Source of the DNA: an uncultured bacterium | Lineage (GTDB): Bacteria; AUK180 | Direction of reading: 5' to 3' | Length of the DNA: 13,721 bases | Assembly (NCBI GenBank): GCA_964453935.1 | Contig: CAYVPX010000017.1 | Location: forward strand, 1 to 13,721 | Shown: one piece after another, positions 33-12,322 of the stretch | Layout: every line of letters begins with the position of its first letter | Position numbering within the stretch: the first letter of the stretch is position 1 | Position numbers and translations under genes: made by a program | The notes under the pieces: model-generated | Seen by the model: only the letters and a program-made list of their open reading frames with translations | Databases searched by the model: none | Told to the model about the DNA's origin: nothing

Positions 33-2228
33 TCATTGTTTAAAAGTTAAAGGAATATTTTTAGTAGTAGTGTGGCCGGATGCGATTACAATGGTTTCTT
101 TGTAAATATTTCTTTTGGGATTAACTAATCGAAGTTCATGTTTTCCCGTTTTCAATTTTAATTTAGCAATAGGAGTAGGTCCAATTTTTTTATTATCTAT
201 GTAAACATAAGACCATGGTTTGGAATTCACAACAAGGTATCCCCAATTCTTTTTTAATGATATTTTAAAAGAATTTTCTCCACCATTTTTAACAACAATA
301 TCCCTTTCATAAGGTTCAATTGTTTTTCCTTTAACTGAAATATGGTGTTTGCCAATGCTTAATTTTTGTGGTGGAATAGGCGTATAACCTATTTTTCCCC
401 CGTCAATAAATATATTTCCAAAGCCGCCTCTTATTGCGAAACTGCACTTCTCATATTTAATTACTCTCTTTTGAAGTGTATAATTGAACGTTGATCTTGT
501 CTTTTCTCCAAAGGAAATCTTGTTATCTATTGTCTCGTAACCCCTTAATTGTATCCTGAGCAAATGATCTCCGAATTTAAAGGTTTTTGTAATGGGTGTA
601 GTCCCTATAATGGAATTATCTATGACAACTTTTGCACCGGCAGGATCTGTTGTAAATGTAAAAGTTCCTTCACTCTTTTTTAAAACAAATTTAAGTGTTT
701 TTCTCTCATTTTTTTGAACTTTAATACTTTTATTTATGGGATAGTACCCTTTTTTACCAATAAAAAGCTGATGTGTGCCAAGGTCAATTTTTATGGGAGA
801 ATTTATTTTCAAAGTATGATTGTCAATCATTATGGAATTAGGCGGAGGATATACTTTTATTGTATATAATGCATAATTCCATGGTATAAGATCGATCGAA
901 AGACTCTTTTTCTCTCCTTTGTCAATAGAAAAATCATATTTCTTATTTTCATAAAGGTCTTTTTTTATTAAAATTGTATGTTTACCTGGTTTTACTGCCA
1001 TTGAGATAGGGGTGGGATTTTTTACAGGTACTTTATCTATCATTACCTTAGCACCTTTTGGATTTGTATCCAAAGAAAATTTTGTTTTCACATTAAAAAC
1101 CGTAAAATACAATACTGCAACTAATGCAATAACAAAAGCAACAGGTATGAAAATAGGAACGCCTTTCTTTAAACTTTTCTCAATTTTTTCAATGTAATTT
1201 TTGCTTTCTTTATGTTCAGGATCCCAGACCAATACTCTTTTAAAATGTACTATTGCCTCGGAATATTCTGCCTTGCCGTTTTTAAAATATTTTTCACCAA
1301 GATTGAATTCTTCGGTAATTTGTTCCTTCTTAAAATTTTCCCAATATTTTGCCGGATTTTTCAAATATCCTTTAATAATAGATTCATCCGGTGAAATATT
1401 GTATGATGAAAAATAATTTTCAATATCTCTCAATGCACTATCAGCCTCTTTATATCGATTTTCAGGATTTTTTGCAACTAATTTTTTATATATATTAATT
1501 ACATTTTTGGAAATTGGTTCTTTAAGATCAGGGATAGGTAATTCATCATCGGATATTATCTTTGCAATGATAGACATATAATTTTTATCACTTGGATATG
1601 GTTTTTTCCCTGTTAGCAATTCATAAAGCATTATACCGGTAGAAAAAATATCAGTCTGATTATTAACATCCTCACCTTTGGCTTGCTCAGGAGACATATA
1701 AGTTGGGGTTCCCATCAATGTGCCTGTCATTGTTAGATTGGACGCTTCTTCAGATCTTGCCAAACCAAAGTCAACAATCTTTACATACCCATCTTTTGAA
1801 ACAAGTATATTTGCAGGCTTAATATCTCTATGTATAATTCCTTGATGATGAGCGAACGCCAAACCTTTTAATACAAAATATACGAAAAGTACTGCGATTT
1901 GTTCCGGCATTTTACCGCCTAATTTTTTAATGATGAATTTCAGGTCAACGCCTTCAACAAACTCCATTATAATAAAGGATGTTTCTTTTTGTTTAATAAA
2001 TTCATAAATTCTAACAATATTAGGATGTTCTAATTTTGATAATGTCTTTGCTTCCCTTTGAAATCTAATTATAAAGCTTTCATCTTCTACGAGAAATGAA
2101 TGCAATTGCTTAATGGCAACTACACGATCCAAAGAAGTTTGGATTCCTTTATATAATGTAGCCATTCCTCCTTTCCCGACCTTTTTACCTACTTCATAAC
2201 CTGGAATATTGATATTTTTATCACTCAT
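33..2228 (-). CDS. Ser/Thr protein kinase, single-pass membrane protein with C-terminal PEGA-domain repeats
   Basis: N-terminal Hanks-type kinase motifs are present: G-rich loop GKGGMATLYKG, VAIK lysine, HRDIKPANILV catalytic loop, DFGLA, and an APE-like SPEQ. A TPR-like stretch precedes one hydrophobic TM segment (VPIFIPVAFVIALVAVLYFTVF). The C-terminal half holds four or five ~60-70 aa repeats with PEGA-like cores (PKGAKVMIDKV..., DPAGAKVVIDNSIIGTTPI..., IDGGKIGYTPI..., IDNKKIGPTPI...). The start is ATG 2226-2228 (minus strand) and the stop is TGA 33-35. Confidence 0.85.
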   Translation of the reverse strand: MSDKNINIPGYEVGKKVGKGGMATLYKGIQTSLDRVVAIKQLHSFLVEDESFIIRFQREAKTLSKLEHPNIVRIYEFIKQKETSFIIMEFVEGVDLKFIIKKLGGKMPEQIAVLFVYFVLKGLAFAHHQGIIHRDIKPANILVSKDGYVKIVDFGLARSEEASNLTMTGTLMGTPTYMSPEQAKGEDVNNQTDIFSTGIMLYELLTGKKPYPSDKNYMSIIAKIISDDELPIPDLKEPISKNVINIYKKLVAKNPENRYKEADSALRDIENYFSSYNISPDESIIKGYLKNPAKYWENFKKEQITEEFNLGEKYFKNGKAEYSEAIVHFKRVLVWDPEHKESKNYIEKIEKSLKKGVPIFIPVAFVIALVAVLYFTVFNVKTKFSLDTNPKGAKVMIDKVPVKNPTPISMAVKPGKHTILIKKDLYENKKYDFSIDKGEKKSLSIDLIPWNYALYTIKVYPPPNSIMIDNHTLKINSPIKIDLGTHQLFIGKKGYYPINKSIKVQKNERKTLKFVLKKSEGTFTFTTDPAGAKVVIDNSIIGTTPITKTFKFGDHLLRIQLRGYETIDNKISFGEKTRSTFNYTLQKRVIKYEKCSFAIRGGFGNIFIDGGKIGYTPIPPQKLSIGKHHISVKGKTIEPYERDIVVKNGGENSFKISLKKNWGYLVVNSKPWSYVYIDNKKIGPTPIAKLKLKTGKHELRLVNPKRNIYKETIVIASGHTTTKNIPLTFKQ

Positions 2229-2234
2229 AACGGG

Positions 2235-2263
2235 ATTTTACCATATTTTTATTAAAAAAACAA
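2235..2263 (-). promoter_or_regulatory. Putative sigma70 promoter for the kinase gene: -35 TTGTTT, 17-nt spacer, extended -10 TGgTAAAAT, ending 6 nt before the ATG (possible leaderless transcript)
   Basis: The minus strand reads cTTGTTTttttaataaaaataTGgTAAAATcccgttATG. The -35 is at plus coordinates 2258-2263 and the -10 at 2235-2240. There is no Shine-Dalgarno between the -10 and the ATG. AT-rich DNA produces such hexamers by chance, so confidence is low. Confidence 0.3.
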
Positions 2264-2321
2264 GTTTTTTGTATAAAATTAACATCCCCCCATTTTTTTT
2301 AAGCATAATCATAGATCCCCA

Positions 2322-2575
2322 CTAAAGTGAATAAATTGTCAATAGGTCGCTCCCAAAGATAAAATAACTTGCTATCATTAATAAAACATTCATCGTTTTT
2401 AATCTGTTATAATCGTGATATTGCATTGTTTCATAATGTAATTCCGTTTTTATTAATCTGTGATATTCCTCTATTGTCCACCTATAGCCATATCCTTCAA
2501 ATATTGTGTCCCTGGCTTCTTTTAGTGTTATACCATCAGGTAATTTTGATAAATAGTAACTATAACAATGCCTTT
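2322..2575 (-). pseudogene. Fragment of an IS4/IS5-family DDE transposase (C-terminal ~85 aa only, no start codon); IS remnant
   Basis: The minus strand has an open frame from 2642 to stop TAG 2322-2324 with no ATG/GTG/TTG start. It translates as ...HCYSYYLSKLPDGITLKEARDTIFEGYGYRWTIEEYHRLIKTELHYETMQYHDYNRLKTMNVLLMIASYFIFGSDLLTIYSL*. This contains an exact Y-x2-R-x3-E-x6-K (YREK) signature (Y-G-Y-R-W-T-I-E-E-Y-H-R-L-I-K, plus coordinates ~2448-2492). Compare IS10 ...YSKRMQIEETFRDLK. The composition is protein-like, unlike the AT-junk frames nearby. The upstream catalytic region is absent. Confidence 0.5.
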
Positions 2576-2598
2576 TTAAAAAATTTAAATAGATAACT

Positions 2599-2626
2599 TT
2601 GAGAAAAATTATTAAAAAGTTATAAT
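2599..2626 (+). promoter_or_regulatory. Putative sigma70 promoter of the lipid-module operon: TTGAGA, 16-nt spacer, TATAAT
   Basis: TTGAGA at 2599-2604 and TATAAT at 2621-2626 form a near-consensus pair. It lies inside the IS remnant and points into the DedA gene. The predicted TSS is ~2633-2635, at the second in-frame ATG (2634). Confidence 0.3.
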
Positions 2627-3251
2627 GATATTTATGGCTTATTTAGTAGAAAATTTCCTTAACCATTTTCACACGCTTTATTTGTTTGGGATAATTTTAA
2701 TTTATCTATTTTTACCTTTTGGTTTGGCAATTTCAGAAGAGATTTTGACTATTATAATAGGTATTTTGGTGGGCAGGGGTTATGTCTCACCTTTTTCAGG
2801 AATTGTTGGCACTGTTTTAGGTGTTTATCTATCTGACATTATCTGTTATTTTATGGGAGTTTTAGTCGATAAATCATTAAAATTACCTATTTTGAGCAAA
2901 ATATATAAAAAAAAGGATAGAATCAGTATATATGATAAATTTCATAATAAATTCAAAGGCGCTTTTATTTTAATAATAAAATTTCTGGTAGGCCTTAAAT
3001 TCTGGATATATGTAGGTGCAGGATACAAAAAGTTCAATTTAAAAACATTTTTAATTGAAGATTTTTTTGCTGCTATAATTTTTAGTCTAATTTATTTAGT
3101 TATTGGTTTTTACTTTGGGTCCCATTTGAATGAAATTTTAGTATTTTTAAATAATTTTAAATACTTACTTATTGCTTTAGTTGTAATAGGGATCACAATA
3201 TTTATTTTAAGGAGAAAAAAACATGAGAAAGACACATCCCATTTATCTTGA
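2625..3251 (+). CDS. DedA/VTT-family (SNARE-associated) integral membrane protein
   Basis: The protein has multiple TM segments. DedA-like motifs include LFLPFGLAISEEILTIIIGILVG (F-x-P..E..L..G core) and a second re-entrant-like element KFKGAFILIIKFLVGLKFWIYVGAG (K/RF-x-P/G-x-R/K-x6-AG pattern). The annotated ATG 2625 sits inside the putative -10 box, so ATG 2634 (MAYLV...) may be the real start. The 3' end overlaps the next gene by 29 nt. Confidence 0.55.
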   Translation: MIFMAYLVENFLNHFHTLYLFGIILIYLFLPFGLAISEEILTIIIGILVGRGYVSPFSGIVGTVLGVYLSDIICYFMGVLVDKSLKLPILSKIYKKKDRISIYDKFHNKFKGAFILIIKFLVGLKFWIYVGAGYKKFNLKTFLIEDFFAAIIFSLIYLVIGFYFGSHLNEILVFLNNFKYLLIALVVIGITIFILRRKKHEKDTSHLS

Positions 3252-4326
3252 TAAAAATGAGAATTTATACGGTCCTTCACACCTCGTTTATGAGTTCGTG
3301 CTAAAAATTAATAAGGAAATTTTTTCCTATTATTCAAGAAATTCAATTAACAGAATTTCTGAAAGCATTTTAAAATATTTGAAATATGATGCCAATAAAA
3401 TTATAATTTCCTATGGTGGCGAAGACCTTTTATGGCAAATTACAAATTTTATCCATGGTGAAGGGGAAAAGAAGCTACTTATTGCAGATAATTCGTGGTG
3501 GTATTATAGAAAAATTGCTGAAAAGGTAGGACTGAAAATAAAAACTTATAAAACTGTAAAAAAGGGAGATTATTGGGAAAATGGTTATGAAAATTTACTG
3601 AAAACTTTGAAAACCTATGATGGGAAATATGTTTTACTATGTTCGCCAAATAATCCTACAGGCGAGAGGCTTTTGAAAAATGAACTTTCAGAAATATTAA
3701 AAACTCATGAGAATAAATTATTTGTACTTGATGAAGCATATTGGGGGTTTGACTTTGATGAGGATGGAAGAATTGAGGATTATAATGAATTTTTAGAGGA
3801 ACATCCAAACCTGATTATATTACGAACCTTTTCAAAATTTTTTGCACTGGCTGGTGTTCGCATTGGTTTTGCTCTTTACGGTAAAAAGTGGCAAAAATTT
3901 AATGATTCCAATTATCGTTATCTTGGATATAATAAATTTTCTGAAGAAATTGTTATGAGAACATTGAGATCTTGCAAATATTATCATAAAATTGCCAGAA
4001 GAATTATGAAAGATAGAGAAAAAACTTATAATTTACTTAAAAACTTTGATGCTTATACTCCATTTAGGACATATACAAATTTTATAATTGTTAAAATAAA
4101 TAATTTAAATTTGAAGGAAGATTTAAAAAAAGCACTCACTAAAAAAAATATTGTAATTAAATGGTTTTCAGATGATGATAAAAATATGAAAGATTTTGTC
4201 AGGATAACCATTGGCAAAACTACACAAATGAAAAAGCTATGGAAAATATTTTTAAAAACAGCATTAAAGTATGAAAAAGACAAAAAGAATATTCCAATTA
4301 TTTCAAAGATCATTGAAGGGGAATAA
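3223..4326 (+). CDS. PLP-dependent class-I/II aminotransferase fold enzyme of the HisC/CobD subfamily (histidinol-phosphate aminotransferase / threonine-phosphate decarboxylase-like)
   Basis: Motifs: DKNENLYGPS (HisC N-terminal NENPxGPS), CSPNNPTGERL (NPxNPTG), VLDEAYWGF (IDEAY), and ILRTFSKFFALAGVRIGFAL (RTFSKAxGLAGLRxGY with the PLP lysine). A good RBS AAGGAGA sits 7 nt upstream of ATG 3223. Sequence alone cannot separate transaminase from decarboxylase chemistry. Confidence 0.8.
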   Translation: MRKTHPIYLDKNENLYGPSHLVYEFVLKINKEIFSYYSRNSINRISESILKYLKYDANKIIISYGGEDLLWQITNFIHGEGEKKLLIADNSWWYYRKIAEKVGLKIKTYKTVKKGDYWENGYENLLKTLKTYDGKYVLLCSPNNPTGERLLKNELSEILKTHENKLFVLDEAYWGFDFDEDGRIEDYNEFLEEHPNLIILRTFSKFFALAGVRIGFALYGKKWQKFNDSNYRYLGYNKFSEEIVMRTLRSCKYYHKIARRIMKDREKTYNLLKNFDAYTPFRTYTNFIIVKINNLNLKEDLKKALTKKNIVIKWFSDDDKNMKDFVRITIGKTTQMKKLWKIFLKTALKYEKDKKNIPIISKIIEGE

Positions 4327-5089
4327 AGCTGAAGAGTTTTTTGATAAACTTTTTTTCCGCCCAATTTCTTTTATTGTTGCATATTCTTTTTATAAGTTAA
4401 ATATATCACCGAATATAGTTACAATTTTATCAGGGTTTTCTGCTTTATTGGCATTTTTCGGGTTTTATAAGAATCAATTAATTTTAGGGTTTATATTTTT
4501 CTTTTTATCTTATTTGTTTGATCTTGCCGATGGTCAGGTTGCTCGCCTTTCAAAAAAGAGTTCACCCCTTGGCCGTATATTGGATGGTTATGTGGATATC
4601 TTTTCCTATATATGTGTCGCTTTTGGATTATCTTTTTACTTATTCCACCAAAACCATACATATACAGGATTCATATTATTTACTATACTCGGAATCTCTC
4701 AATCACTACATACATTACTATTTGATGGATTGAGAAATGAATATTTATGCTTAACGAAAAATTTACAAAATTGTAGAGAATACATGTTAAAAATGGACAT
4801 TCAAGAAGAAAAAGCAAAAAAGATGGCAAATTGGTATAATAAATTACAATGCATGATATTTAAAAAAATTGTTTTATTAGAAAAATTAGATGATAAAAAA
4901 CGTGATTTTTATATTTTATTCAACTCTTTTTTAGGAAGTGGAACTAAATATTTTTTCCTTTTTTTAGGCATTATTTTTCATAAAATTACGATTACCTTAT
5001 GGTTTTTAATCATTATTACCAATATTATTTTTATTATCTCTTATTTATGGGGAGCACATTATGAGAATAATTATACTGGCAGCAGGTAG
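4271..5089 (+). CDS. CDP-alcohol phosphatidyltransferase family integral membrane enzyme
   Basis: The signature D-G-x2-A-R-x8-G-x3-D-x3-D is present as FDLADGQVARLSKKSSPLGRILDGYVDIFSY. An N-terminal PNxxT element (ISPNIVTILSG) and several TM helices are also present. The only available start is ATG 4271, which overlaps the upstream gene by 56 nt. Confidence 0.8.
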   Translation: MKKTKRIFQLFQRSLKGNKAEEFFDKLFFRPISFIVAYSFYKLNISPNIVTILSGFSALLAFFGFYKNQLILGFIFFFLSYLFDLADGQVARLSKKSSPLGRILDGYVDIFSYICVAFGLSFYLFHQNHTYTGFILFTILGISQSLHTLLFDGLRNEYLCLTKNLQNCREYMLKMDIQEEKAKKMANWYNKLQCMIFKKIVLLEKLDDKKRDFYILFNSFLGSGTKYFFLFLGIIFHKITITLWFLIIITNIIFIISYLWGAHYENNYTGSR

Positions 5090-5777
5090 AGGACGAAGGC
5101 TTTCTCCTTTAACTGATACTACACATAAAACGCTTTTAAAAATTGGTGAAAAAACAATTTTGGAGCATACAATTGATAATTTTAAATTTTATAAAATACA
5201 TGATTTTCAATTTGTACTCGGTTATAGAGCAAATGATATCATTGATTTCCTGGATAAAAAGGGTATAAATTATTCATATGTAATAAATGATATCTGGGAT
5301 AAAACCAACAATATATATTCGCTATATCTTGCATTAAAAGAAGGTGATTCAGAAGATATTATTTTAATTGACAGTGATATCTTTTTTTCATATAAAATAT
5401 TGGAATCACTGTTTAGGCAAAAAGAAACTGCTTTTTTAGTCAGAAAAGGAAAATTAACAGAAGAGGATATGAAGGTTGTCATAAAAGATAATAGAATATT
5501 AAAAATATCAAAAGAAATACCTCTAAAAGAAGCAAGTGGTGAATCAATAGGTATTGAATATTTTACTAAAAAAGATTATGCTCTTCTTAAAAGTGAATTA
5601 GGGGATGTGATTGAAAATGAAACAAATGGAAAAAATCTTTTTTATGAGTATGCTTTTCAACGATTAATAGATAAAAAACTCATATCTCCCTATTCAATAA
5701 TCATAAATGATTTTGCCTGTGAAATAGACACGAGAGAAGACCTTGATTTTGCAAAAAATATTTTAAAAAAAAATTAA
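5061..5777 (+). CDS. LicC-family nucleotidyltransferase (CTP:phospho-alcohol cytidylyltransferase-like)
   Basis: N-terminal NTP-binding loop MRIIILAAGRGRRLSPLT. The sequence aligns well to S. pneumoniae LicC through the family-specific blocks FVLGY, TNNIYSLYLA (LicC YNNFYSLYL) and C-terminal EIDTREDL (LicC EIDSVQDY). RBS GGGGAG lies 6 nt upstream of the ATG. The start overlaps the upstream gene by 29 nt. Confidence 0.85.
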   Translation: MRIIILAAGRGRRLSPLTDTTHKTLLKIGEKTILEHTIDNFKFYKIHDFQFVLGYRANDIIDFLDKKGINYSYVINDIWDKTNNIYSLYLALKEGDSEDIILIDSDIFFSYKILESLFRQKETAFLVRKGKLTEEDMKVVIKDNRILKISKEIPLKEASGESIGIEYFTKKDYALLKSELGDVIENETNGKNLFYEYAFQRLIDKKLISPYSIIINDFACEIDTREDLDFAKNILKKN

Positions 5778-5910
5778 AAAAGATATGAAAAATACAGTAT
5801 GTCGAGACAACAGACAGATTTTATACTTAATTGGGTTTAAAAAGTAAAAAAGTAAATCCCAGCCCCTTAAAAAAATTTGATTTTTTTTAAAAAATAAATT
5901 AAAATAAAAT

Positions 5911-6555
5911 ATGTTAGACAAAGAGAAAATAGACCAATTGGTAGAAAAAGTTAAGAATGAATTTCCAAAGGGAATGTCACAAAATAATAATAAATTAATT
6001 ACTTTAGAGGTATCGGCTCACCATTTACATATTTCAAGGGAACATCTTGATATACTTTTCGGCAAGGGTTATGAACTTACATCTATTAAAGCTCTCTCTC
6101 AACCCGGACAGTATGCTGCAAAAGAAACAGTACGGATCGTGGGACCCAATGGCGAATACGATAATGTAAGAATATTGGGACCAGTAAGAAGTGAAACACA
6201 GGTTGAGATTGCAATGACCGATTGTTTCATTATTGGTATTGAACCGGTTATTAGAATGTCAGGTGATATTAATGGAACACCTGGTTGCATTATTTGGGGA
6301 CCAAAAGGGCATCTTGAATTAAAAAAAGGGGTCATTGTCGCAAAAAGACACTTTCACTGCACCCCGCAAACGGCAGAGAACCTTGGTTTAAAGAACAATG
6401 ATGTTGTTTCCGCTGAAATAAGCGGAGAACGAGGCGGTATATTGAGAAACATAATTGTTAGGGTTAGTGATAAATATGCAGATGCCATTCACCTTGATAC
6501 AGATGAAGGCAATGGTCTTGGTGTCAAGACCGGTGATCGTGCATATATTAAATAA
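5911..6555 (+). CDS. pduL: PduL-type phosphotransacylase (phosphate acetyl/propanoyltransferase) with N-terminal encapsulation-peptide-like helix
   Basis: The protein is colinear with Salmonella PduL across the conserved blocks: HHLHIS / HVHL-like, [69 protein letters not shown]. It has the two-repeat PduL architecture. The N-terminus [18 protein letters not shown] is a predicted amphipathic helix. Confidence 0.9.
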
Positions 6556-6569
6556 AATCGGAGGTAGAT

Positions 6570-6854
6570 ATGGAAGCATTAGGTATGATTGAAACAAAAA
6601 GTTTGGTTGCATGTATTGAAGCTGCAGATGCAATGGTAAAAGCAGCAAAGGTACAGCTTGTTGCTTATGAAAAAACTGGCGGCGGTTATGTAACAGCTTT
6701 GGTAAGAGGCGATGTAGCGGCTTGTAAAGCAGCAACAGATGCAGGTGCCGCAGCAGCACAAAGAGTTGGCGAATTGGTAAGTGTTCATGTAATTCCAAGA
6801 CCTCATCAGAATCTTGACGGAATTTTCCCTATCAAAGCTAAAAGCAACAAATAG
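6570..6854 (+). CDS. BMC-H hexameric shell protein (PduA/EutM/CcmK family, Pfam PF00936-type)
   Basis: [79 protein letters not shown] is near-identical in pattern to PduA ([52 protein letters not shown]). RBS GGAGGT is upstream. Confidence 0.95.
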
Positions 6855-6893
6855 AGGAAGTGGGATCTTTTTCCCACCACATAAGGACTTATT

Positions 6894-7163
6894 ATGTTAA
6901 TTGGAAAAGTTATCGGTAGAGTTGTTGCTACAAGGAAGGAAGAAAAACTTCATGGAGCAAAATTATTGGTGGTTCAGCCGGTTGGTCTTAATATGAAACC
7001 GCAGGGAGCACCCATTGTTTGCATTGATTCTGTAGATGCAGGATTCAAGGAAACCGTTCTCATTGTTCAGGGTTCTTCCGCTCGTTTGGTAACAAATCAA
7101 GGAAATAACCCTGTCGACGCTGCAATAGTTGGAATCATTGATTCCATTAAAATTGACGATTAG
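6894..7163 (+). CDS. BMC-P pentameric vertex protein (EutN/CcmL/PduN family), paralog 1
   Basis: 89 aa. N-terminal GKVIGRVVAT, then KLLVVQPV and D-x-VDAG-x-x-ETVLIVQGSSAR, as in EutN/PduN. Confidence 0.9.
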   Translation: MLIGKVIGRVVATRKEEKLHGAKLLVVQPVGLNMKPQGAPIVCIDSVDAGFKETVLIVQGSSARLVTNQGNNPVDAAIVGIIDSIKIDD

Positions 7164-7171
7164 GGAGAGAG

Positions 7172-8602
7172 ATGATGGATAAAAATGAGATTGAGAAATT
7201 GGTAAGAAAGGTCGTAGATGAATTCGTTAAGGAGGGCGTAGCAATTTCAAATTCGCAAAATGCTATTTCATCAAAAGAAGGAATATTTTCAAATATTGAT
7301 GATGCTATTACGGCAGCAAGAATAGCACAGAAGGACATTGAAAAACTTCCCCTTGATATAAGAAGCAAAATCGTTGACAATATGAAAAAGGTGGCACTTG
7401 AAAATGCCGATATGCTTGGAGAAATGGCTGTTGAGGAAACTGGAATGGGCAGAATGCCGGATAAAGCGGACAAGGTAAGGTTAGTTGCTAATAAAACACC
7501 TGGGGTTGAAGATGTAAAACCCATGGTCTATACGGGTGATCACGGAATGGTACTTGAAGAAAGAGCACCTTACGGGGTCATAGGAAGTCTTACACCTTCC
7601 ACCAATCCCCCATCTACGATTGTAAATAATGGGATCAGTGCCATTGCCGGTGGTAATGCCATTGTTTTTAATCCGCATCCGGCGGCAAAGAATGTTTCAA
7701 ACAAGACCGTTCAATTAATGCATCGTGCAATTATTGATGCAGGGGGACCAAAAAACCTTATCTGCAGTATTGAAACGCCTTCACAAGAAAGTAGTGAAAA
7801 GTTAATGAAACATCCGTATCTTAATCTACTCTTGGCAACAGGCGGGGAGTTCATGGTACATCTTGCAATGAATTCGGGAAAAAAGACCATTGTAGGAGGT
7901 CCGGGAAATCCGCCCTGTCTTGTTGATGAAACGGCGGACATATCCAAAGCCGCAAAGGATATCGTCATCTCTTCATCATTTGATAATAATGTGGTTTGCG
8001 TCCTTGAGAAGGAGGTCTTTGTCGTAGAATCCGTTGCAGATCAACTTATCTCTGAGATGAAAAAACACAATGTTTATGAAATAAAGGGTGACGATATAAA
8101 AAGGGTTACAGATCTTTTAATTGCAAAAGATGAGGGCACGGGTTACAGGGTTCCAACTATTAATAAAAAATATGTTGGAAAAGACCCATATATTATTCTT
8201 AAAGATGCGGGTATCACTATTCCTCAGAATACACGGCTTGCCATTATGCAGGTTAATTGGGACCATCCCATGGTGCAGGTTGAGCAACTTTTACCCGTAC
8301 TGCCCATTGTAAGGGTAAAGGACTGGGAAGATGGAGCCATGCATTCTCTTGAAACGGAACATCATTACAGGCACACCTTTATAATGCATTCAACAAATAT
8401 TGATAGATTATCATATATGGCAAGAGAATGTGATGCATCTATCTTTGTAAAGAATGGTATGTCCCTGCAAGGTCTCGGATATATGGGCGAAGGACCTACA
8501 ACAATGACCATCGCTACTCCGACAGGAGACGGTATAACAACAGCAATGACCTTTACAAGACGCAGACGCTGTGCATTAATAGATAGGTTCAGGATAGTAT
8601 AA
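7172..8602 (+). CDS. CoA-acylating aldehyde dehydrogenase (EutE/PduP family) with N-terminal encapsulation-peptide-like helix
   Basis: The EutE/PduP-type catalytic region FDNNVVCVLEKEVFVVE contains the active-site Cys, and the characteristic C-terminus TFTRRRRCALIDRFRIV is present. The N-terminus MMDKNEIEKLVRKVVDEF closely resembles the PduL N-terminus. RBS GGGAGAGAG is upstream. Confidence 0.9.
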   Translation: MMDKNEIEKLVRKVVDEFVKEGVAISNSQNAISSKEGIFSNIDDAITAARIAQKDIEKLPLDIRSKIVDNMKKVALENADMLGEMAVEETGMGRMPDKADKVRLVANKTPGVEDVKPMVYTGDHGMVLEERAPYGVIGSLTPSTNPPSTIVNNGISAIAGGNAIVFNPHPAAKNVSNKTVQLMHRAIIDAGGPKNLICSIETPSQESSEKLMKHPYLNLLLATGGEFMVHLAMNSGKKTIVGGPGNPPCLVDETADISKAAKDIVISSSFDNNVVCVLEKEVFVVESVADQLISEMKKHNVYEIKGDDIKRVTDLLIAKDEGTGYRVPTINKKYVGKDPYIILKDAGITIPQNTRLAIMQVNWDHPMVQVEQLLPVLPIVRVKDWEDGAMHSLETEHHYRHTFIMHSTNIDRLSYMARECDASIFVKNGMSLQGLGYMGEGPTTMTIATPTGDGITTAMTFTRRRRCALIDRFRIV

Positions 8603-8610
8603 AGAGTACA

Positions 8611-9927
8611 ATGCAATTAAATGATATTCAAAAAGCAGGGATTATTGGGTGTGGCGGCGCAGGTTTTCCCACATTCTTCAAACTTAAAAGTGAGGTTGAA
8701 ACACTCATCATAAACGGTGCAGAATGTGAACCGCTTCTGGAAACAGACAAAGAAATATTAAGGAACCATTTGGATATGGTTATTGAGGGGATTAAGACAG
8801 CAAAAGAACTTATAAAAGCGAAAGAGGTTTTTTTGGGTGTTAAGGAATACTATAAAGATCTTATTGAATATCTTAAAGAGAATGAAGAGGGATTCAAGGT
8901 ATTTCCCCTTGAGAATATCTACCCCATTGGTGATGAACAGCTTCTTGTTAAGGCTATAACAGGGAAAATAATCCCCGAAGCAGGGCTACCTCTTGATGTT
9001 GGAGTGGTGGTTCAAAATGTTGAAACAATCTATCATTTGGGAAGATTAAAAAAAGAAAACGAGAATTTTACTCATAGATTCGTTACTGTTAACGGCGAGG
9101 TTGAATTCCCATTTGTTGCGTATGTGCCCATTGGAACACCTGTTTCAGAATTATTAAATATTGCGAAACCCAAGATCCTATTAACGGATGCCAAGATAAT
9201 TGACGGCGGACCCATGATGGGTAAATTTATTACAGAGGAAGATTTTATAAAAAAAACAACCTCGGGTATCCTGGTAATTCCCAAGGAGCATAAATTGATC
9301 AGACAAAGGACACGGGATATTGACACCATAAAAAAGATATCAAGATCTGCCTGTATTCAGTGCAGAAGATGTACGGATTTTTGTCCGAGATATTTGAACG
9401 GTCACAGAATCGAGCCGCATAAGTGGATGAGAAATCTTGCTCTTGGAGAGGTACTTCCCAATGAAATGGCAAATATTTGTAGCGAGTGCGGTGTTTGCGA
9501 ACTTGTAGCATGTCCCATGGATATTTCCCCTAGATTGGTGGCACAAATAATGAAAAAACAGATGGCAGATAATGGTATGAAAAATGAGCATTATCACAAT
9601 AAGCCGGAGAAAAGCCGCGATTTTGCTGAATTAAGGAAGGTCAATACATTGAAATTAATGGAACACCTTGATATTGATCAATACAATGTTCATCCACACC
9701 TTGAGAAATTTACCATTGAGCCGGAAACAGTAAGAATATATTTGAACCAGCATATTGGAAAACCGGCAGAATCCAATGTAAAGATCAATGATAAAGTGAA
9801 AATAGGTGATGTTATAGGAAAATGCAAAGAAGGTGAGCTTTCCGTTTATTACCATGCCTCTATCTCAGGTAAGGTGGTATCTGTTGAAAATAATTATATT
9901 GATATAATAAATGAAAAAAATAGTTGA
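8611..9927 (+). CDS. PduS-like RnfC/NuoF-family flavoprotein with two [4Fe-4S] ferredoxin motifs
   Basis: The N-terminus AGIIGCGGAGFPTFFKL...INGAECEPLL matches the PduS/RnfC NADH-binding signature (GxGGAGFP, AECEP). Two CxxCxxCxxxCP motifs are present: CIQCRRCTDFCP and CSECGVCELVACP. The length of 438 aa is similar to PduS. Confidence 0.85.
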   Translation: MQLNDIQKAGIIGCGGAGFPTFFKLKSEVETLIINGAECEPLLETDKEILRNHLDMVIEGIKTAKELIKAKEVFLGVKEYYKDLIEYLKENEEGFKVFPLENIYPIGDEQLLVKAITGKIIPEAGLPLDVGVVVQNVETIYHLGRLKKENENFTHRFVTVNGEVEFPFVAYVPIGTPVSELLNIAKPKILLTDAKIIDGGPMMGKFITEEDFIKKTTSGILVIPKEHKLIRQRTRDIDTIKKISRSACIQCRRCTDFCPRYLNGHRIEPHKWMRNLALGEVLPNEMANICSECGVCELVACPMDISPRLVAQIMKKQMADNGMKNEHYHNKPEKSRDFAELRKVNTLKLMEHLDIDQYNVHPHLEKFTIEPETVRIYLNQHIGKPAESNVKINDKVKIGDVIGKCKEGELSVYYHASISGKVVSVENNYIDIINEKNS

Positions 9928-9938
9928 GGTAAGTAGTT

Positions 9939-10499
9939 ATGACTTTTAGAAATGCCATTGCCCTTGTTGAATTTAACAGTATTGCACATGGGATCGCCTT
10001 TGCAGATGAGATGGTAAAGGGCGGCAATGTTAAGCTTCTTGACAATTATCCCACATGTCCGGGGAAACATATTGTCATTGTTTCCGGAGATACTGACGCA
10101 GTAAAACAAGCGGTAAAAAATGGATTTACGGTAGGGAAGGATTTCGTTCTTGAGTACTCCATCATCCCAAATGTCCATGAAGATGTGTTAAAAGGAGCAA
10201 TGGGGATCCCATCTGTTTCATTGAATGATATAGATGCCATTGGTATCGTTGAGAGCTTTTCAATAATAAAATGTGTAGAGGCTGCAGATATGGCTTTGAA
10301 GGAATCTCAGGTAAAATTAGTGGACATGCGGCTGGGAAAAGCACTTGGTGGAAAAGCATACTTTATTCTCACCGGAGCGGTTGGAGCAGTAAAAAGCAGT
10401 GTAATGGCAGCAGTGGAATTCTTGAAGGAAAATACAAATTTGGTACAGTTCAAGATCATACCTGCTCCGGCAGATGAACTAAAAAAAAGTCTTTTATGA
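9939..10499 (+). CDS. BMC-T tandem-BMC-domain shell protein, PduT-like, with the conserved pore Fe-S cysteine
   Basis: 186 aa with two BMC domains (ALVEFNSIAHGIAFADEMVKGGNVKLL... and IGIVESFSIIKCVEAADMALKESQVKLVDMRL...). The N-terminal half aligns to Salmonella PduT, including the TICPGK motif, seen here as YPTCPGKH. Cys40 (nt 10056-10058) corresponds to the [4Fe-4S] ligand of PduT. RBS GAGGTAAG is upstream. Confidence 0.85.
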   Translation: MTFRNAIALVEFNSIAHGIAFADEMVKGGNVKLLDNYPTCPGKHIVIVSGDTDAVKQAVKNGFTVGKDFVLEYSIIPNVHEDVLKGAMGIPSVSLNDIDAIGIVESFSIIKCVEAADMALKESQVKLVDMRLGKALGGKAYFILTGAVGAVKSSVMAAVEFLKENTNLVQFKIIPAPADELKKSLL

Positions 10500-10509
10500 G
10501 AGGTAAAAA

Positions 10510-11124
10510 ATGAGAATTGCAATAGGAAGTGATCACGGTGGATTTGAATTAAAAAGAAAATTGGTCCCATTTATTGAATCCTTGGGGCATGAGGTCAGTG
10601 ATCTTGGAACATACACACCCGATTCTGTGGATTATCCCGACATTGCTGCAATTGTTGCATATGAAGTCGCAAAGGGTAATTATCCTTTTGGTATACTTAT
10701 CGATGGAGCCGGTATTGGCTCTGCCATTGCTGCAAATAAAATAAAAGGTATTCGTGCAGCCACGGTGAACAATATTTTCATGGCACAAACCGCAAGGGAG
10801 CACAACAATTCAAATATACTGGTTTTGGGAGCAGGACAAACAGGTGAAAATCTAATAAAAGATATTATCAAAATTTTTTTAAGTACACCATTTGCAGGTG
10901 GGAGACATGAAAGAAGAGTTAATAAAATCAGTAAATTAGAAGAAGCAAATCTTAAAGAGATTGAGAAATATACCAGTCCACCTAAAAAATTGATAACAGC
11001 CGACGATATTCGTTCGGCAAGTAGAAATGGCGAAAACATTCTTTATTACGTGAAGGGTGCCATTATAACTGAATTGGCTAAAGAAACTGCATTTGATCTT
11101 GGAGTGAGGATCGTAGAAAGATAA
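10510..11124 (+). CDS. RpiB/LacAB-family sugar-phosphate isomerase (ribose-5-phosphate isomerase B-like) fused to a ~60-aa C-terminal extension
   Basis: Residues 1-~140 align end-to-end with E. coli RpiB (IAIGSDHGGF, DYPD, GILIDGAGIGSAIAANKIKGIRA, REHNNSNILVLGA, GGRHERRV). The position of E. coli catalytic Cys66 is Asp65 here (GAT 10702-10704). Residues ~141-204 (SKLEEANLKEIEKYTSPPKKLITADDIRSASRNGENILYYVKGAIITELAKETAFDLGVRIVER) are extra relative to canonical ~150-aa RpiB. The stop overlaps the next start (TAATG). Confidence 0.85.
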   Translation: MRIAIGSDHGGFELKRKLVPFIESLGHEVSDLGTYTPDSVDYPDIAAIVAYEVAKGNYPFGILIDGAGIGSAIAANKIKGIRAATVNNIFMAQTAREHNNSNILVLGAGQTGENLIKDIIKIFLSTPFAGGRHERRVNKISKLEEANLKEIEKYTSPPKKLITADDIRSASRNGENILYYVKGAIITELAKETAFDLGVRIVER

Positions 11125-11390
11125 TGTTCTTGGCAAAAGTAATTGGCAAGGTTGTTCTATCACATTCCGAAGAGCAGATGCCTAAGTATAAACTTTTAAT
11201 TATTCAACCCATTAATGAGAAAGGAGAAAATACTGATGTTCCTCAAATCTCAATGGATATTGTGGGTGCCGGACCCGGGGAAACGGTGCTCGTTACCATC
11301 GGAGATGAGTCAATGCTCGGTTTTTTACCTGAACAACCGCCTGGGGATCTTTGCATTATAGGCATTGTTGATGACATAGGATTGGAATAA
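11124..11390 (+). CDS. BMC-P pentameric vertex protein, paralog 2
   Basis: 88 aa. AKVIGKVVLS...KLLIIQPI...DIVGAGPGETVLVTIGDES has the EutN/CcmL fold signature. It is TAATG-coupled to its flanking genes. Confidence 0.85.
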   Translation: MFLAKVIGKVVLSHSEEQMPKYKLLIIQPINEKGENTDVPQISMDIVGAGPGETVLVTIGDESMLGFLPEQPPGDLCIIGIVDDIGLE

Positions 11391-11668
11391 TGTATATTGG
11401 CAAGGTCATAGGTTCTGTTACCGTCTCCAAAGGAGAACCCGGACTAAAAGGCAAGAAACTCATAATCATAATGTTCCTTGATGCTAATGGCAAGGAAACG
11501 GGTAAGTACAATATTGCTGTAGATAAAATGGGTGCCGGATTTCATGAAACCGTATTATTGGTAAAGGGTAAAGAAGGAGTTGACATGCTTACAGGTTATA
11601 AACCGCCGGCAGACCTTACTATTTGCGGTATTATTGATCTTATAAATCATCCGAAAGATGGGAAATAA
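11390..11668 (+). CDS. BMC-P pentameric vertex protein, paralog 3
   Basis: 92 aa. GKVIGSVTVS...KKLIIIMFLD...DKMGAGFHETVLLVKGKEG. It is divergent from paralogs 1 and 2 but shares the pattern. Confidence 0.8.
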   Translation: MYIGKVIGSVTVSKGEPGLKGKKLIIIMFLDANGKETGKYNIAVDKMGAGFHETVLLVKGKEGVDMLTGYKPPADLTICGIIDLINHPKDGK

Positions 11669-11671
11669 ATT

Positions 11672-12322
11672 ATGGATTTAGGTTTTTTTATTTTTTTGAC
11701 AATTTTTGTTCTTATAACAGCAATTATTTTTATTGCAAGGAAGGGAGGGTTCAAAACAACCGAGAAAATTAAAGAGTTGTGGAAAGCAAACGGAATGGAT
11801 ATTCGCTTACTCGAACAAAAATTTCTGGGTATCTCCAAAAAGAAAGTAATTGCAATAAAAAGAGAACAAAAGTACTTAATAGTGGGAATGAACTGGGTGG
11901 TTAGTTCAGGAAGGAATCAAATACCATATTGGGGTATCGGTATCTTTACACATAGCGAGGTCATGAAATTTTCAATAACAAGGAGAAGACCTACTTTTTT
12001 AGATGGGAAGAGGATCAAATTAAATGATCCCGAACTTGATAAGATGCTCGTTTTAAAATGCAAGGATGAGGACTGGTTCAGAATGTACTTTAACGAAGGA
12101 GTGTTAATGGAATTTGCTCATACCATTCCCAAAAATACAATAATATCCTATGAAAAGAAATCACCTGTGAATATAAATAGTATTTTAGAGGAATTGGCAT
12201 ATGATCCCTACGAGCCCTTTATTATGGTAAAAAGAAGAGAGATCGCAGCATACTCTAAGGTATTTAATGAAACAATCGGTGTTGCTGAAAAACTCGCAAA
12301 AATATTTTTACATATTAGATAA
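11672..12322 (+). CDS. Hypothetical N-terminally membrane-anchored protein, tightly coupled to the BMC operon
   Basis: 216 aa. One N-terminal TM helix (LGFFIFLTIFVLITAIIFIA) is followed by a ~190-aa soluble domain with no motif I recognise. It starts 4 nt after the BMC-P3 stop. Its AT-rich codon use matches the flanks. Confidence 0.6.
   Translation: MDLGFFIFLTIFVLITAIIFIARKGGFKTTEKIKELWKANGMDIRLLEQKFLGISKKKVIAIKREQKYLIVGMNWVVSSGRNQIPYWGIGIFTHSEVMKFSITRRRPTFLDGKRIKLNDPELDKMLVLKCKDEDWFRMYFNEGVLMEFAHTIPKNTIISYEKKSPVNINSILEELAYDPYEPFIMVKRREIAAYSKVFNETIGVAEKLAKIFLHIR

Follow-up and report, generated by a model that had tools for sequence, protein, structure and literature searches.

A conserved three-enzyme gene module proposed to build an amino-alcohol head group through a CDP-alcohol intermediate

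Four genes lie in a row on the plus strand of the 13,721 nt stretch of DNA analysed here (the window). They were assigned to a DedA/VTT-domain membrane protein (2625–3251, 208 aa), a PLP enzyme of the HisC/CobD fold (3223–4326, 367 aa), a CDP-alcohol phosphotransferase (4271–5089, 272 aa) and a LicC/PntC-like cytidylyltransferase (5061–5777, 238 aa). All four open reading frames start with ATG and, from their coordinates, overlap by 29 nt (3223–3251), 56 nt (4271–4326) and 29 nt (5061–5089), as the initial annotation of four overlapping genes had described; all four are intact. Its four domain assignments were also confirmed, every Pfam score lying above the gathering score: VTT_dom 38.3 against 33.9, Aminotran_1_2 111.3 against 19.7, CDP-OH_P_transf (PF01066) 58.4 against 22 and NTP_transferase 41.4 against 21.2, with NTP_transf_3 also matched by the cytidylyltransferase.

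The called starts are not longest-frame artefacts, because the N-termini of the PLP enzyme (MxxxIYLDxNEN), the transferase (xxFQRSLKxxxxEExFD) and the cytidylyltransferase (MxxxILAAG) are those conserved in their families and any downstream start would lose these motifs. AAGGAG is located 9 nt upstream of the PLP gene start at 3223 and GGGGAG 5–6 nt upstream of the cytidylyltransferase gene start at 5061. The divergent intergenic region between a minus-strand Ser/Thr kinase gene and the cassette (2229–2624) is the presumed promoter region; promoter-like hexamers at the cassette were no commoner than in shuffled sequence, and this region gave no Rfam match. No terminator was predicted across 2150–6050.

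The PLP enzyme is, judged on its sequence, the founding member of a distinct family within the HisC/CobD fold. The family alignment is marked by SWWYYK (91–96), SPNNPTGN, DEAYW, RTFSK with the catalytic Lys205, and RYLGYNRxSE (232–241). The protein scored 197.1 bits against the NCBIfam hisC model (cutoff 276.55) and 127 against CobD (cutoff 290.55), while the family profile scored 197 bits against HisC, 133 against SMUL_1544 and 76–89 against CobD structures in the PDB. The AlphaFold model (pLDDT 90.2) found HisC and then CobD as its best Foldseek matches. Residue mapping onto E. coli HisC demonstrated that all PLP-binding residues are retained, as are those contacting the substrate phosphate (R335 as R327 and R322 as K313), whereas the side-chain pocket differs, with W92/W93 at the positions of Y110/G111, and the N-terminal arm that bears Tyr20 is missing. 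No hisG, hisD, hisB, hisH or hisA gene was found near the PLP gene in any of 82 loci, and his genes were likewise absent from the window; the enzyme is therefore not the his-clustered HisC that the initial annotation had named as a possible outcome. The sub-cutoff score, the lack of his neighbours and the remodelled side-chain pocket together indicate that it is not a housekeeping HisC. It is predicted to make a phospho-amino-alcohol. Transaminase and decarboxylase chemistry are not separated by sequence or by predicted fold; the profile scores favour HisC-type transaminases over CobD-type decarboxylases as relatives, which makes transamination of dihydroxyacetone phosphate (DHAP) to serinol phosphate at least as likely as a decarboxylation.

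The cytidylyltransferase fitted its LicC-like assignment well. The family profile matched LicC (1jyk, 111.5 bits) and PntC (6pd1, 102.4 bits) over their full length, with the next match at 59 bits and IPCT at 54 bits. D104 and E196, invariant in the family, correspond to D105/D192 of LicC and E104/E196 of PntC, which contact the substrate amine, and Trp136 of the LicC choline box is replaced by D/E in this family. The enzyme is predicted to convert a phospho-amino-alcohol and CTP into a CDP-amino-alcohol.

The transferase is an integral membrane protein with a complete catalytic motif in the family alignment (D84xxD87G88xxA91R92x8G101xxxD105xxxD109) and a hydrophilic insert of ∼60 residues ahead of the last helices. 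Its profile matched AF2299 best (78 bits), followed by phosphatidylinositol-phosphate (PIP) synthase (PIPS, 51), DIPPS (47) and CEPT1 (37), similarity to CEPT1/CHPT1 being 37 bits or less; Foldseek searches with the model (pLDDT 81.9) likewise gave AF2299, PIPS and DIPPS. The transferase does not resemble the EPT/CPT enzymes of the Kennedy-type pathway envisaged initially. On the comparison with PgsA/PssA-type enzymes that had been suggested, the nearest characterised relatives are AF2299, the PIP and archaetidylinositol-phosphate (AIP) synthases and DIPP synthase. These use soluble phosphorylated acceptors and none is a CDP-alcohol:diacylglycerol enzyme, which counts against the reading proposed below. 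At locus L128, a Ppm-Ppd-PntC/AEPT aminoethylphosphonate cluster begins with a transferase that belongs to the same family, scoring 328 bits against its profile. This suggests that the family also works alongside a different LicC-type enzyme, one that activates a 2-aminoethyl-phosph(on)ate. The window enzyme is predicted to move the phospho-amino-alcohol from its CDP derivative onto an acceptor hydroxyl.

At least 581 species-level genomes encode a member of the PLP-enzyme family; 80 of them, all MAGs, were fetched, and linkage was counted in 82 loci. Hosts included Ignavibacteria, Bacteroidota, Aminicenantes, Spirochaetes and Edwardsbacteria. A transferase gene accompanied the PLP gene in 72/82 loci and a cytidylyltransferase gene was also present in 51/82, in the orders PLP-transferase-cytidylyltransferase (32), PLP-cytidylyltransferase-transferase (16) and transferase-PLP-cytidylyltransferase (3); the flanking genes otherwise vary between lineages. 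The closest relative of the window cassette (L086, transferase 58% identical) carries the same three genes with overlaps of 62 and 10 nt, the former comparable to the 56 nt PLP/transferase overlap of the window, and overlapping or 4 nt-coupled junctions recur in related loci. In one locus (L031) the cytidylyltransferase and transferase are fused in frame. This linkage across phyla, together with the fusion, supports the earlier proposal that the PLP enzyme, the transferase and the LicC-like cytidylyltransferase form a functional module.

That proposal had placed all four genes in a single pathway, and it does not extend well to DedA. Apart from the window, only one of ∼160 loci, from Edwardsbacteria, has a DedA gene beside the module (L006:5366–5992, 68.5 bits to the window protein), so the four-gene claim is weak. 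The best NCBIfam match of the DedA protein, UptA, reached 43 bits where the cutoff is 250. The gene, which leads the operon in the window, is probably a lineage-specific accessory. It may encode a flippase or scramblase that takes the module's product, or one of its precursors, across the membrane.

We propose that 3223–5777 is a single instance of a three-enzyme module, conserved and horizontally spread, which uses a CDP-alcohol route to assemble an amino-alcohol head group with a phosphodiester linkage, a reading to which we give a probability of roughly 60%. The HisC-fold enzyme would first form a 2-amino-alcohol phosphate from a phosphorylated intermediate of central metabolism, most likely by transamination of DHAP to serinol phosphate or, as the main alternative, by decarboxylation of O-phospho-L-serine to phosphoethanolamine. 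Homology and the conserved ligand-contact residues suggest that the LicC/PntC-like enzyme would then activate this compound with CTP, and gene linkage and the one fusion suggest that the membrane transferase would place the phospho-amino-alcohol on an acceptor hydroxyl with release of CMP. Given such a module, a membrane lipid such as diacylglycerol is, by a little better than even odds, the acceptor. Serinol phosphate is a tentative first choice of head group at somewhat below an even chance, a group other than serinol phosphate or phosphoethanolamine is a real possibility, and phosphoethanolamine itself is conceivable but rather unlikely. Were diacylglycerol the acceptor, a zwitterionic aminophospholipid would be made without CDP-diacylglycerol, Pss or Psd. 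We found no paper describing the three-gene cassette; it is widespread yet unstudied, and a lipid head group not yet described may be its product.

The strongest competing explanation, unlikely but to be taken seriously, is that, as with IPCT/DIPPS, the module couples the CDP-amino-alcohol to a phosphorylated alcohol that is soluble, for instance L-myo-inositol 1-phosphate or a further amino-alcohol phosphate. The product would then be a small zwitterionic compound, either a solute or secreted, and not a lipid. The best characterised relatives of the transferase are in keeping with this, the PIP/AIP synthases among them having inositol 1-phosphate as acceptor, and the fusion in L031 mirrors the IPCT-DIPPS architecture. 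All 26 of the 26 aligned transferase-family members matched the IPCT/DIPPS model. Scores to DIPPS models, however, were all 31–62 bits, far under the cutoff of 580. Inositol-phosphate synthase (MIPS) adjoins the module in L014 and adjoins every member of a sister system, adjacency being recorded in L014, L116, L118, L133, L138 and L166, but it lies beside the core module in only 1/82 genome loci. The commonest accessory gene, following the module in 20 of ∼160 loci, encodes a LysE-type translocator. The LysE family exports small amino compounds, and this gene is no less compatible with a soluble product than with a lipid. Against a solute, the cassette lacks a phosphatase gene with which to finish a DIP-like compound, and such solutes are, to our knowledge, not expected in the hosts of the module, which are MAGs of groundwater, peat, fen, sediment and digester. 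A PEMT-family methyltransferase gene directly downstream of the module in L006, and DedA in L006 and the window, are hints of a lipid product.

It is improbable that the transferase instead works in the manner of PgsA or PIP synthase, with CDP-diacylglycerol as donor and the phospho-amino-alcohol of the PLP enzyme as acceptor (for example serinol phosphate, a glycerol-3-phosphate analogue), giving a phosphatidyl-amino-alcohol phosphate that is dephosphorylated later and leaving the cytidylyltransferase a separate or auxiliary role. The transferase is indeed nearer to the CDP-diacylglycerol-using PIP/AIP synthases than to EPT/CPT, and the smallest conserved unit consists of the PLP enzyme and the transferase, 21/82 loci having this pair with no cytidylyltransferase nearby. 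However, downstream sequence runs to <3 kb in 14 of the 30 loci that lack a cytidylyltransferase, and some Ignavibacteria visibly carry the module in separate parts. The cytidylyltransferase is present in most loci, fused to the transferase in one; in the sister system its domain is fused to an aminotransferase domain; and it keeps the amine-contacting residues of LicC/PntC. The absent phosphatase gene also counts against this scheme.

A role for the cassette in serving the adjacent bacterial microcompartment, by supplying or consuming a shell-processed amino-alcohol, is very improbable. Some microcompartments metabolise ethanolamine or aminopropanol, and only 134 nt lie between the end of the cassette at 5777 and the PduL gene at 5911, with no predicted terminator between. 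However, in a relative whose AldDH is 71% identical, unrelated genes precede the same operon, microcompartment genes are absent at the closest relative of the cassette and at all 160 other loci, and GC content changes sharply, from 0.25–0.28 in the cassette to ∼0.40 in the microcompartment genes; the adjacent operon is almost certainly unrelated. A last reading, in which the PLP gene is simply a hisC of histidine biosynthesis lying by chance beside two lipid genes, with no pathway, draws on its top NCBIfam and PDB matches, which are histidinol-phosphate aminotransferases. It is largely refuted by the score, the separate family with its own invariant motifs, the transferase linkage kept across phyla without his genes, the replaced imidazole-pocket positions and the missing Tyr20 arm.

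Among known systems, the proposed module resembles the Pnt clusters, predicted to make phosphonolipids or to tailor with phosphonyl groups, which combine a CDP-alcohol phosphatidyltransferase and LicC-like PntC with PepM, Ppd and an AEP transaminase (PMC6697681; PMC5987646). In both, a 2-aminoethyl-phosph(on)ate from a PLP enzyme would be activated by a LicC-type CMP/CDP step and then transferred, and the full-length match to PntC and the transferase of L128 strengthen the likeness. The window lacks PEP mutase and phosphonopyruvate decarboxylase, which suggests that the head group is a phosphate ester and not a phosphonate, and its PLP enzyme is of HisC-fold class I/II whereas AEP transaminase is of class V. 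An alternative inositol-lipid cluster, functionally unconfirmed, has been proposed in Bacteroides vulgatus and Prevotella, with MIPS, an NTP transferase, a CDP-alcohol phosphatidyltransferase and a HAD protein, and a Kennedy-like action on diacylglycerol (PMC9246714). It shares with the window a phospho-alcohol maker, a LicC/IPCT-like nucleotidyltransferase and a CDP-alcohol phosphotransferase; the window has a PLP enzyme in place of inositol-phosphate synthase and no HAD gene, and hosts of its module are mostly environmental uncultured lineages.

The IPCT/DIPPS system and AF2299 of Archaeoglobus fulgidus, the latter matching the window transferase best in both sequence and fold, also have a nucleotidyltransferase paired or fused with a CDP-alcohol phosphotransferase. 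They differ in that the window proteins score far under the family cutoffs, the window cytidylyltransferase takes after LicC and PntC (111 and 102 bits) and not IPCT (54 bits), a PLP enzyme is present and MIPS is normally absent from the locus. The eukaryotic and Treponema Kennedy pathway (kinase, CCT/ECT or LicC, CPT/EPT) shares CDP-alcohol activation and a phosphotransferase independent of CDP-diacylglycerol. The window, by comparison, has a short transferase weakly similar to CEPT1/CHPT1, a lipid acceptor that is only proposed, and no kinase, which suggests that the phospho-alcohol is made de novo by the PLP enzyme. For that step there are precedents in Cj1437 (DHAP to serinol phosphate) and Cj1436 (Ser-P to ethanolamine phosphate) (PMC11800397). 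Cj1437, forming (S)-serinol phosphate, Cj1436/SMUL_1544 and CobD (Thr-P to aminopropanol phosphate) have the same fold and PLP- and phosphate-binding residues and make the type of compound the module would require, PDB 6oux and 1lc5 being among the matches of the PLP-family profile. Cj1436 and Cj1437 are likened to the window enzyme by description and not by sequence. By profile score, the family lies closer to HisC than to SMUL_1544 or CobD. These enzymes feed capsule amidation or cobamide synthesis, whereas the product of the window enzyme would enter a CDP-alcohol route.

The window is a complete MAG contig of 13,721 bp (NCBI), in which a cassette comprises four forward-strand genes, recognised in the ORF list and with Pfam and each beginning with ATG: a DedA/VTT protein (2625–3251, +), a PLP enzyme of the class I/II aminotransferases (3223–4326, +), a CDP-alcohol phosphotransferase (4271–5089, +) and a nucleotidyltransferase (5061–5777, +). 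The initial annotation had read the same four genes, with the same domain families and with overlaps of 29, 56 and 29 nt; the ORF list gave identical coordinates, strand and ATG starts, the overlaps were re-measured at the same values and each of the four domains scored above its Pfam gathering score. The starts are real rather than artefacts of choosing the longest ORF, because the N-terminal motifs of the families are present and would be lost from any downstream start. Good Shine-Dalgarno matches were found ahead of 3223 and 5061. Promoter-like matches were no more frequent than shuffled expectation, no terminator was predicted across 2150–6050, Rfam gave no match anywhere in the window, the gap upstream of the cassette included, and PHROGs gave none for the DedA protein or for the two uncharacterised proteins of the window.

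Upstream of the cassette and divergent from it lies a Ser/Thr protein kinase gene (33–2228, −). Its product has a transmembrane segment and carries five PEGA domains, and a 99% identical copy was found on another contig (L088) beside thymidylate kinase and holB-like genes. An AT-rich gap of 396 nt (2229–2624) separates the kinase gene from the cassette; within it a 75-aa ORF with a TTG start (2369–2596) had no Pfam match and is probably non-coding. Downstream, a bacterial microcompartment operon (5911–12322, +) encodes, in order, PduL, BMC-H, EutN, an acylating aldehyde dehydrogenase, an RnfC/PduS-like flavoprotein, BMC-T, an RpiB-like isomerase, two further EutN proteins and an uncharacterised protein of 216 aa. 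The RpiB-like isomerase carries a tail of ~55 aa, and no signature enzyme of the microcompartment was recognisable in the window. Convergent with this operon is the gene for a multi-pass membrane protein of 362 aa (12539–13627, −; 23% GC), which matched nothing in Pfam or PHROGs. The GC content is ~0.26 in the cassette and ~0.40 in the microcompartment operon, with the jump located at the boundary. In a relative (loci L169/L170) the microcompartment genes were present in the order of the window (aldehyde dehydrogenase 71% identical), the genes upstream were unrelated to the cassette and the last, uncharacterised gene of the operon was not homologous to that of the window. Among the other ~160 module or transferase loci, which are best-scoring subsets, no microcompartment genes were found. 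A functional link between cassette and microcompartment was rejected on the basis of the relative's different upstream genes and these ~160 loci, and, with the jump in GC content, the two units were treated as independent.

The PLP enzyme, the transferase and the cytidylyltransferase form a conserved module of ~2.5 kb. When one genome per species was scanned with the PLP family, at least 581 loci were recovered; the best 80, all in MAGs, belong to Ignavibacteria, Bacteroidota, Aminicenantes/Acidobacteriota, Spirochaetes and Candidatus Edwardsbacteria. Among the carriers of the module are complete MAG chromosomes such as OY781463.1 and OY970261.1. Two sets of 80 loci, both top-scoring subsets of longer match lists, were fetched; their genes were called as longest ORFs and scored with three family profiles at arbitrary thresholds. 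Within the best-scoring subset, the transferase was present in 72 of 82 PLP-anchored loci, 51 of which had the cytidylyltransferase as well, and nine loci had neither; 14 of the 30 loci lacking a cytidylyltransferase had <3 kb of downstream sequence. Three gene orders were observed, PLP-transferase-cytidylyltransferase (n=32), PLP-cytidylyltransferase-transferase (n=16) and transferase-PLP-cytidylyltransferase (n=3), and the flanking genes were lineage-specific housekeeping genes (gap/pgk, ackA, uvrD and RNase Y among them). In the first two contexts inspected, one from a Spirochaete and the other from a Bacteroidota-like MAG, the genes ran from aminotransferase to CDP-OH transferase to NTP transferase, and the closest relative of the window transferase (58% identity) belongs to three genes that are arranged alike and also overlap. 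At one locus (L031) the cytidylyltransferase and transferase are fused in frame in a protein of 552 aa that retains both Pfam domains. The PLP protein has many relatives, of which the nearest are only ~40% identical; at the level of 50%-identity clusters, 78 relatives were found at E ≤ 1e-30, followed by a gradual passage to general HisC-like proteins. The linkage across phyla and the fusion support the part of the initial proposal in which these three proteins act as one functional module.

The PLP enzyme gave its top NCBIfam match to the hisC equivalog (TIGR01141) at 197.1 bits, below the cutoff of 276.55, and scored 127 bits against CobD (TIGR01140, L-threonine-O-3-phosphate decarboxylase), below the cutoff of 290.55; no cob genes were present among the clustered neighbours of the module loci. 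A profile of the family matched plant HISN6 at 197 bits, bacterial HisC structures at 134–158, SMUL_1544 (6oux), which resembles serine-phosphate decarboxylases, at 133 and CobD at 76–89. When the AlphaFold model (pLDDT 90.2) was used in Foldseek, the matches to HisC (E ~1e-26) and CobD (E ~1e-23) were nearly equal, therefore the fold does not decide the chemistry of the enzyme. Alignment to E. coli HisC placed the residues which we take to be its PLP-binding set, Tyr55, Asn157, Asp184, Tyr187, Ser213, Lys214 and Arg222, on Y37, N144, D170, Y173, S204, K205 and R213, all of them kept, with K205 as the catalytic lysine. Of the two arginines that presumably hold the substrate phosphate, R335 is kept as R327 and R322 is conservatively replaced by K313. 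The imidazole-side pocket, which we assume to be lined in HisC by Tyr20 of the N-terminal arm and by Tyr110, is changed: Y110/G111 correspond to W92/W93 of an SWWYYK motif, invariant in the family, and the arm that bears Tyr20 is absent. Homologues of hisG, D, B, H and A were found neither in the 82 loci nor in the window. The initial annotation had allowed for a bona fide HisC beside other his genes; a housekeeping hisC was rejected on the basis of the score below the cutoff, the changed pocket with its missing arm and the lack of his neighbours in these loci.

The enzyme thus shares the HisC fold without being HisC, and its likely substrate is a phosphate ester whose side chain is less bulky than that of histidinol. 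The cassette contains no kinase, so this substrate should be a common phosphorylated metabolite. Each of two candidate reactions has a characterised precedent, in the enzymes Cj1437 and Cj1436, which presumably both belong to the HisC/CobD COG. Cj1437 forms (S)-serinol phosphate from DHAP by transamination, and Cj1436 decarboxylates phosphoserine to phosphoethanolamine (PMC11800397). The PLP family scores ~70 bits higher with the hisC model than with that for CobD, which weakly favours DHAP transamination as the predicted reaction.

The cytidylyltransferase (CYTIDYLYLTRANSFERASE) is LicC/PntC-like and predicted to be suited to a primary amine. It has a nucleotidyltransferase fold with an N-terminal LAAGxGxRL, and the family profile matched LicC (1jyk) at 111.5 bits over positions 2–240 and the PntC domain of Treponema denticola Tde1415 (6pd1) at 102.4 bits over positions 2–241; the next match scored 59 bits and IPCT 54. 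Crystal structures show Glu104/Glu196 of PntC and Asp105/Asp192 of LicC in contact with the substrate amine, and LicC holds the quaternary amine of choline in a 'composite aromatic box' (PMC6697681). Profile alignments placed the amine-contact positions on Asp104 and Glu196, which were invariant in 26 members of the family. With similarity to LicC and PntC over the full length and these acidic residues kept, the LicC-family placement made at first reading stands. Where LicC has Trp136, which we take to belong to its aromatic box for choline, the family has Asp or Glu throughout, and the LicA kinase, the LicB choline transporter and the LicD transferase were absent from the module loci. The enzyme is therefore LicC-like and probably not specific for phosphocholine, which is an unlikely substrate given the missing lic genes and tryptophan. 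Its features fit a predicted substrate of the form P-O-C-C-NH3+ with a primary amine, as the PLP enzyme would yield.

The transferase contains the motif D-x2-D-G-x2-A-R-x8-G-x3-D-x3-D, of which D84, D87, G88, A91, R92, G101, D105 and D109 were invariant in 26 sequences, and it matched PF01066 at 58.4 bits (gathering 22). The initial annotation had compared this protein with the EPT/CPT enzymes of the Kennedy pathway, and here it was not upheld: the family profile matched AF2299 best (78 bits), followed by PIP synthases (51), DIPPS (47), CEPT1 (37) and CHPT1 (≤29), and Foldseek with a structure model built from a shallow alignment of six sequences (pLDDT 81.9) recovered AF2299, PIPS and DIPPS and no CPT/EPT structure. 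The nearest relatives in both profile and fold thus indicate that the family is not of the Kennedy type by membership. The opposite placement, with PgsA/PssA-type enzymes, received a mixed answer. PIP synthases are among the nearest relatives, while every NCBIfam equivalog score was far below its cutoff (AIP synthase 65/180, PIP synthase 43/170, pssA 31/107), leaving the family in between. Against the IPCT/DIPPS model NF041135 (cutoff 580) the transferase scored 31 bits and the cytidylyltransferase 62 bits.

From the fusion in L031 and from its linkage to the cytidylyltransferase, the transferase is predicted to use a CDP-amino-alcohol as donor. A word-indexed protein search gave five matches to the transferase, and the family was reached through loci and profiles instead. 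In 34 transferase-anchored metagenome loci of ≥8 kb (best-scoring subset), the full module was present in 13 and neither partner in 19, tandem paralogue pairs being among the latter; the family extends beyond the module. Two paralogous transferases flank the PLP and cytidylyltransferase genes in some cassettes (L035, L046, L089 and L131), and at four loci (L093, L100, L121 and L158) the two paralogues follow one another amid housekeeping genes (rho, SpoIIE phosphatase, rml genes), where neither a PLP gene nor a cytidylyltransferase gene was found nearby. At a further locus (L128:6995–12592) a transferase of the module family (328 bits to the family profile) heads a phosphonate cluster of three further proteins: a PEP mutase (401 bits, above the cutoff) that bears an additional cytidylyltransferase-like domain, a phosphonopyruvate decarboxylase and a fusion of PntC to AEP transaminase. 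This transferase was nested among module-linked sequences in a rough tree, made by neighbour-joining only, and its cluster lends independent support to a putative CDP-amino-alcohol-type donor for the family. For clusters of this architecture in Nostoc and Burkholderia, phosphonolipids are the predicted products (PMC5987646), which makes the L128 protein a candidate for a bacterial phosphonolipid synthase. The window has neither Ppm nor Ppd, and for it a phosphonate head group was rejected.

Genes that accompany the module differ between lineages. The DedA protein scored 38.3 bits against 33.9 for VTT_dom, so that it has the domain, and 43 bits against a cutoff of 250 for UptA, which places it outside that subfamily of lipid transporters. 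Among the ~160 best-scoring loci, DedA occurred with the module in the window and in Candidatus Edwardsbacteria (L006:5366–9577) only, where the genes for DedA, PLP enzyme, transferase, cytidylyltransferase and a PEMT-family phospholipid methyltransferase run in one direction. In both, DedA abuts the PLP gene, and one DedA protein matches the other at 68.5 bits; the methyltransferase, directly 3' of the module, was found at L006 alone. In 20 loci, all Bacteroidota-like, the gene directly 3' of the module encodes a LysE-type membrane protein of ~278 aa (for example L043:8651–9487 and L004:10868–11701), a candidate for export of a soluble product or for a membrane function analogous to that of DedA. 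Inositol-phosphate synthase (MIPS) adjoins the core module at L014 only, one of 82 genome loci in the best-scoring subset. A sister system on high-GC metagenome contigs (L116, L118, L138 and L166; for example L118:2420–7927) combines MIPS, a LicC-like nucleotidyltransferase, a more distant CDP-alcohol phosphotransferase and a fusion protein of ~640 aa, in which an IPCT-like nucleotidyltransferase domain is joined to an aminotransferase above the hisC cutoff (293.6 against 276.55). The accessory genes diverge: a lipid product is suggested by PEMT and DedA, and one that is soluble or linked to inositol by LysE and MIPS.

The structure of the genes, their domain families, the conservation of catalytic motifs, the linkage across phyla and the fusions are observations, and the pathway proposed from them has four steps. 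The PLP enzyme would form a 2-amino-alcohol phosphate, the LicC/PntC-like enzyme would convert it to the CDP derivative, the membrane transferase would join the phospho-amino-alcohol to an acceptor, and the product would be transported or flipped by DedA, or by LysE in Bacteroidota. If the module is read correctly, the chances that the acceptor is a membrane lipid are slightly better than even. The rival acceptor, a soluble phospho-alcohol, to which the LysE and MIPS neighbours point and the PEMT and DedA neighbours do not, is less likely, and other acceptors make up the small remainder. On the same proviso the head group would tentatively be serinol phosphate from DHAP, at somewhat under even odds; some other compound, aminopropanol phosphate, a histidinol-like compound or an aminocyclitol phosphate included, comes next as a serious contender, and phosphoethanolamine from phosphoserine, the Cj1436 reaction, is less likely still. 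We would put at roughly 0.3 the probability that the module makes a membrane lipid class new to science, with phosphatidylserinol as the leading candidate, formed from a glycolytic intermediate independently of a kinase and of CDP-diacylglycerol in hundreds of uncultured Ignavibacteria, Bacteroidota, Aminicenantes and Spirochaetes. Phosphatidylserinol is phosphatidylethanolamine with an added hydroxymethyl group, that is, the amino analogue of phosphatidylglycerol. If it is made, it might explain some of the unidentified aminophospholipids of environmental lipidomes.

As a lipid, the product would serve as a new biomarker and extend the zwitterionic membrane lipids by a new biophysical variant; as a soluble compound, it would be a new phosphodiester metabolite. 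A function would also follow for the many proteins in three large groups whose present annotations are 'histidinol-phosphate aminotransferase family', 'CDP-alcohol phosphatidyltransferase family' and 'NTP transferase', and the cassette is spread over several hundred species or more in poorly known phyla. The full-text literature, in which subscription papers are mostly outside coverage so that absence is not proof, yielded neither a description of the cassette nor one of a phospholipid with serinol, histidinol or aminopropanol that occurs naturally. Bacterial aminophospholipids are classically made by the CDP-diacylglycerol/Pss-Psd route, and to our knowledge bacterial CDP-alcohol routes are known for choline (Treponema) only and predicted for phosphonates and inositol. 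The cassette would represent a third mode of head-group supply, in which a PLP enzyme acts on a central phosphorylated metabolite with neither a kinase nor an uptake step. In its logic the module matches phosphonyl-tailoring and phosphonolipid clusters, the proposed inositol-lipid cluster of the Bacteroides vulgatus type (PMC9246714) and IPCT/DIPPS. It is set apart from them by the supplier of the head group, a family of dedicated PLP enzymes, derived from HisC and nearly always linked to the transferase, and since this supplier is novel, the head group itself is probably new.
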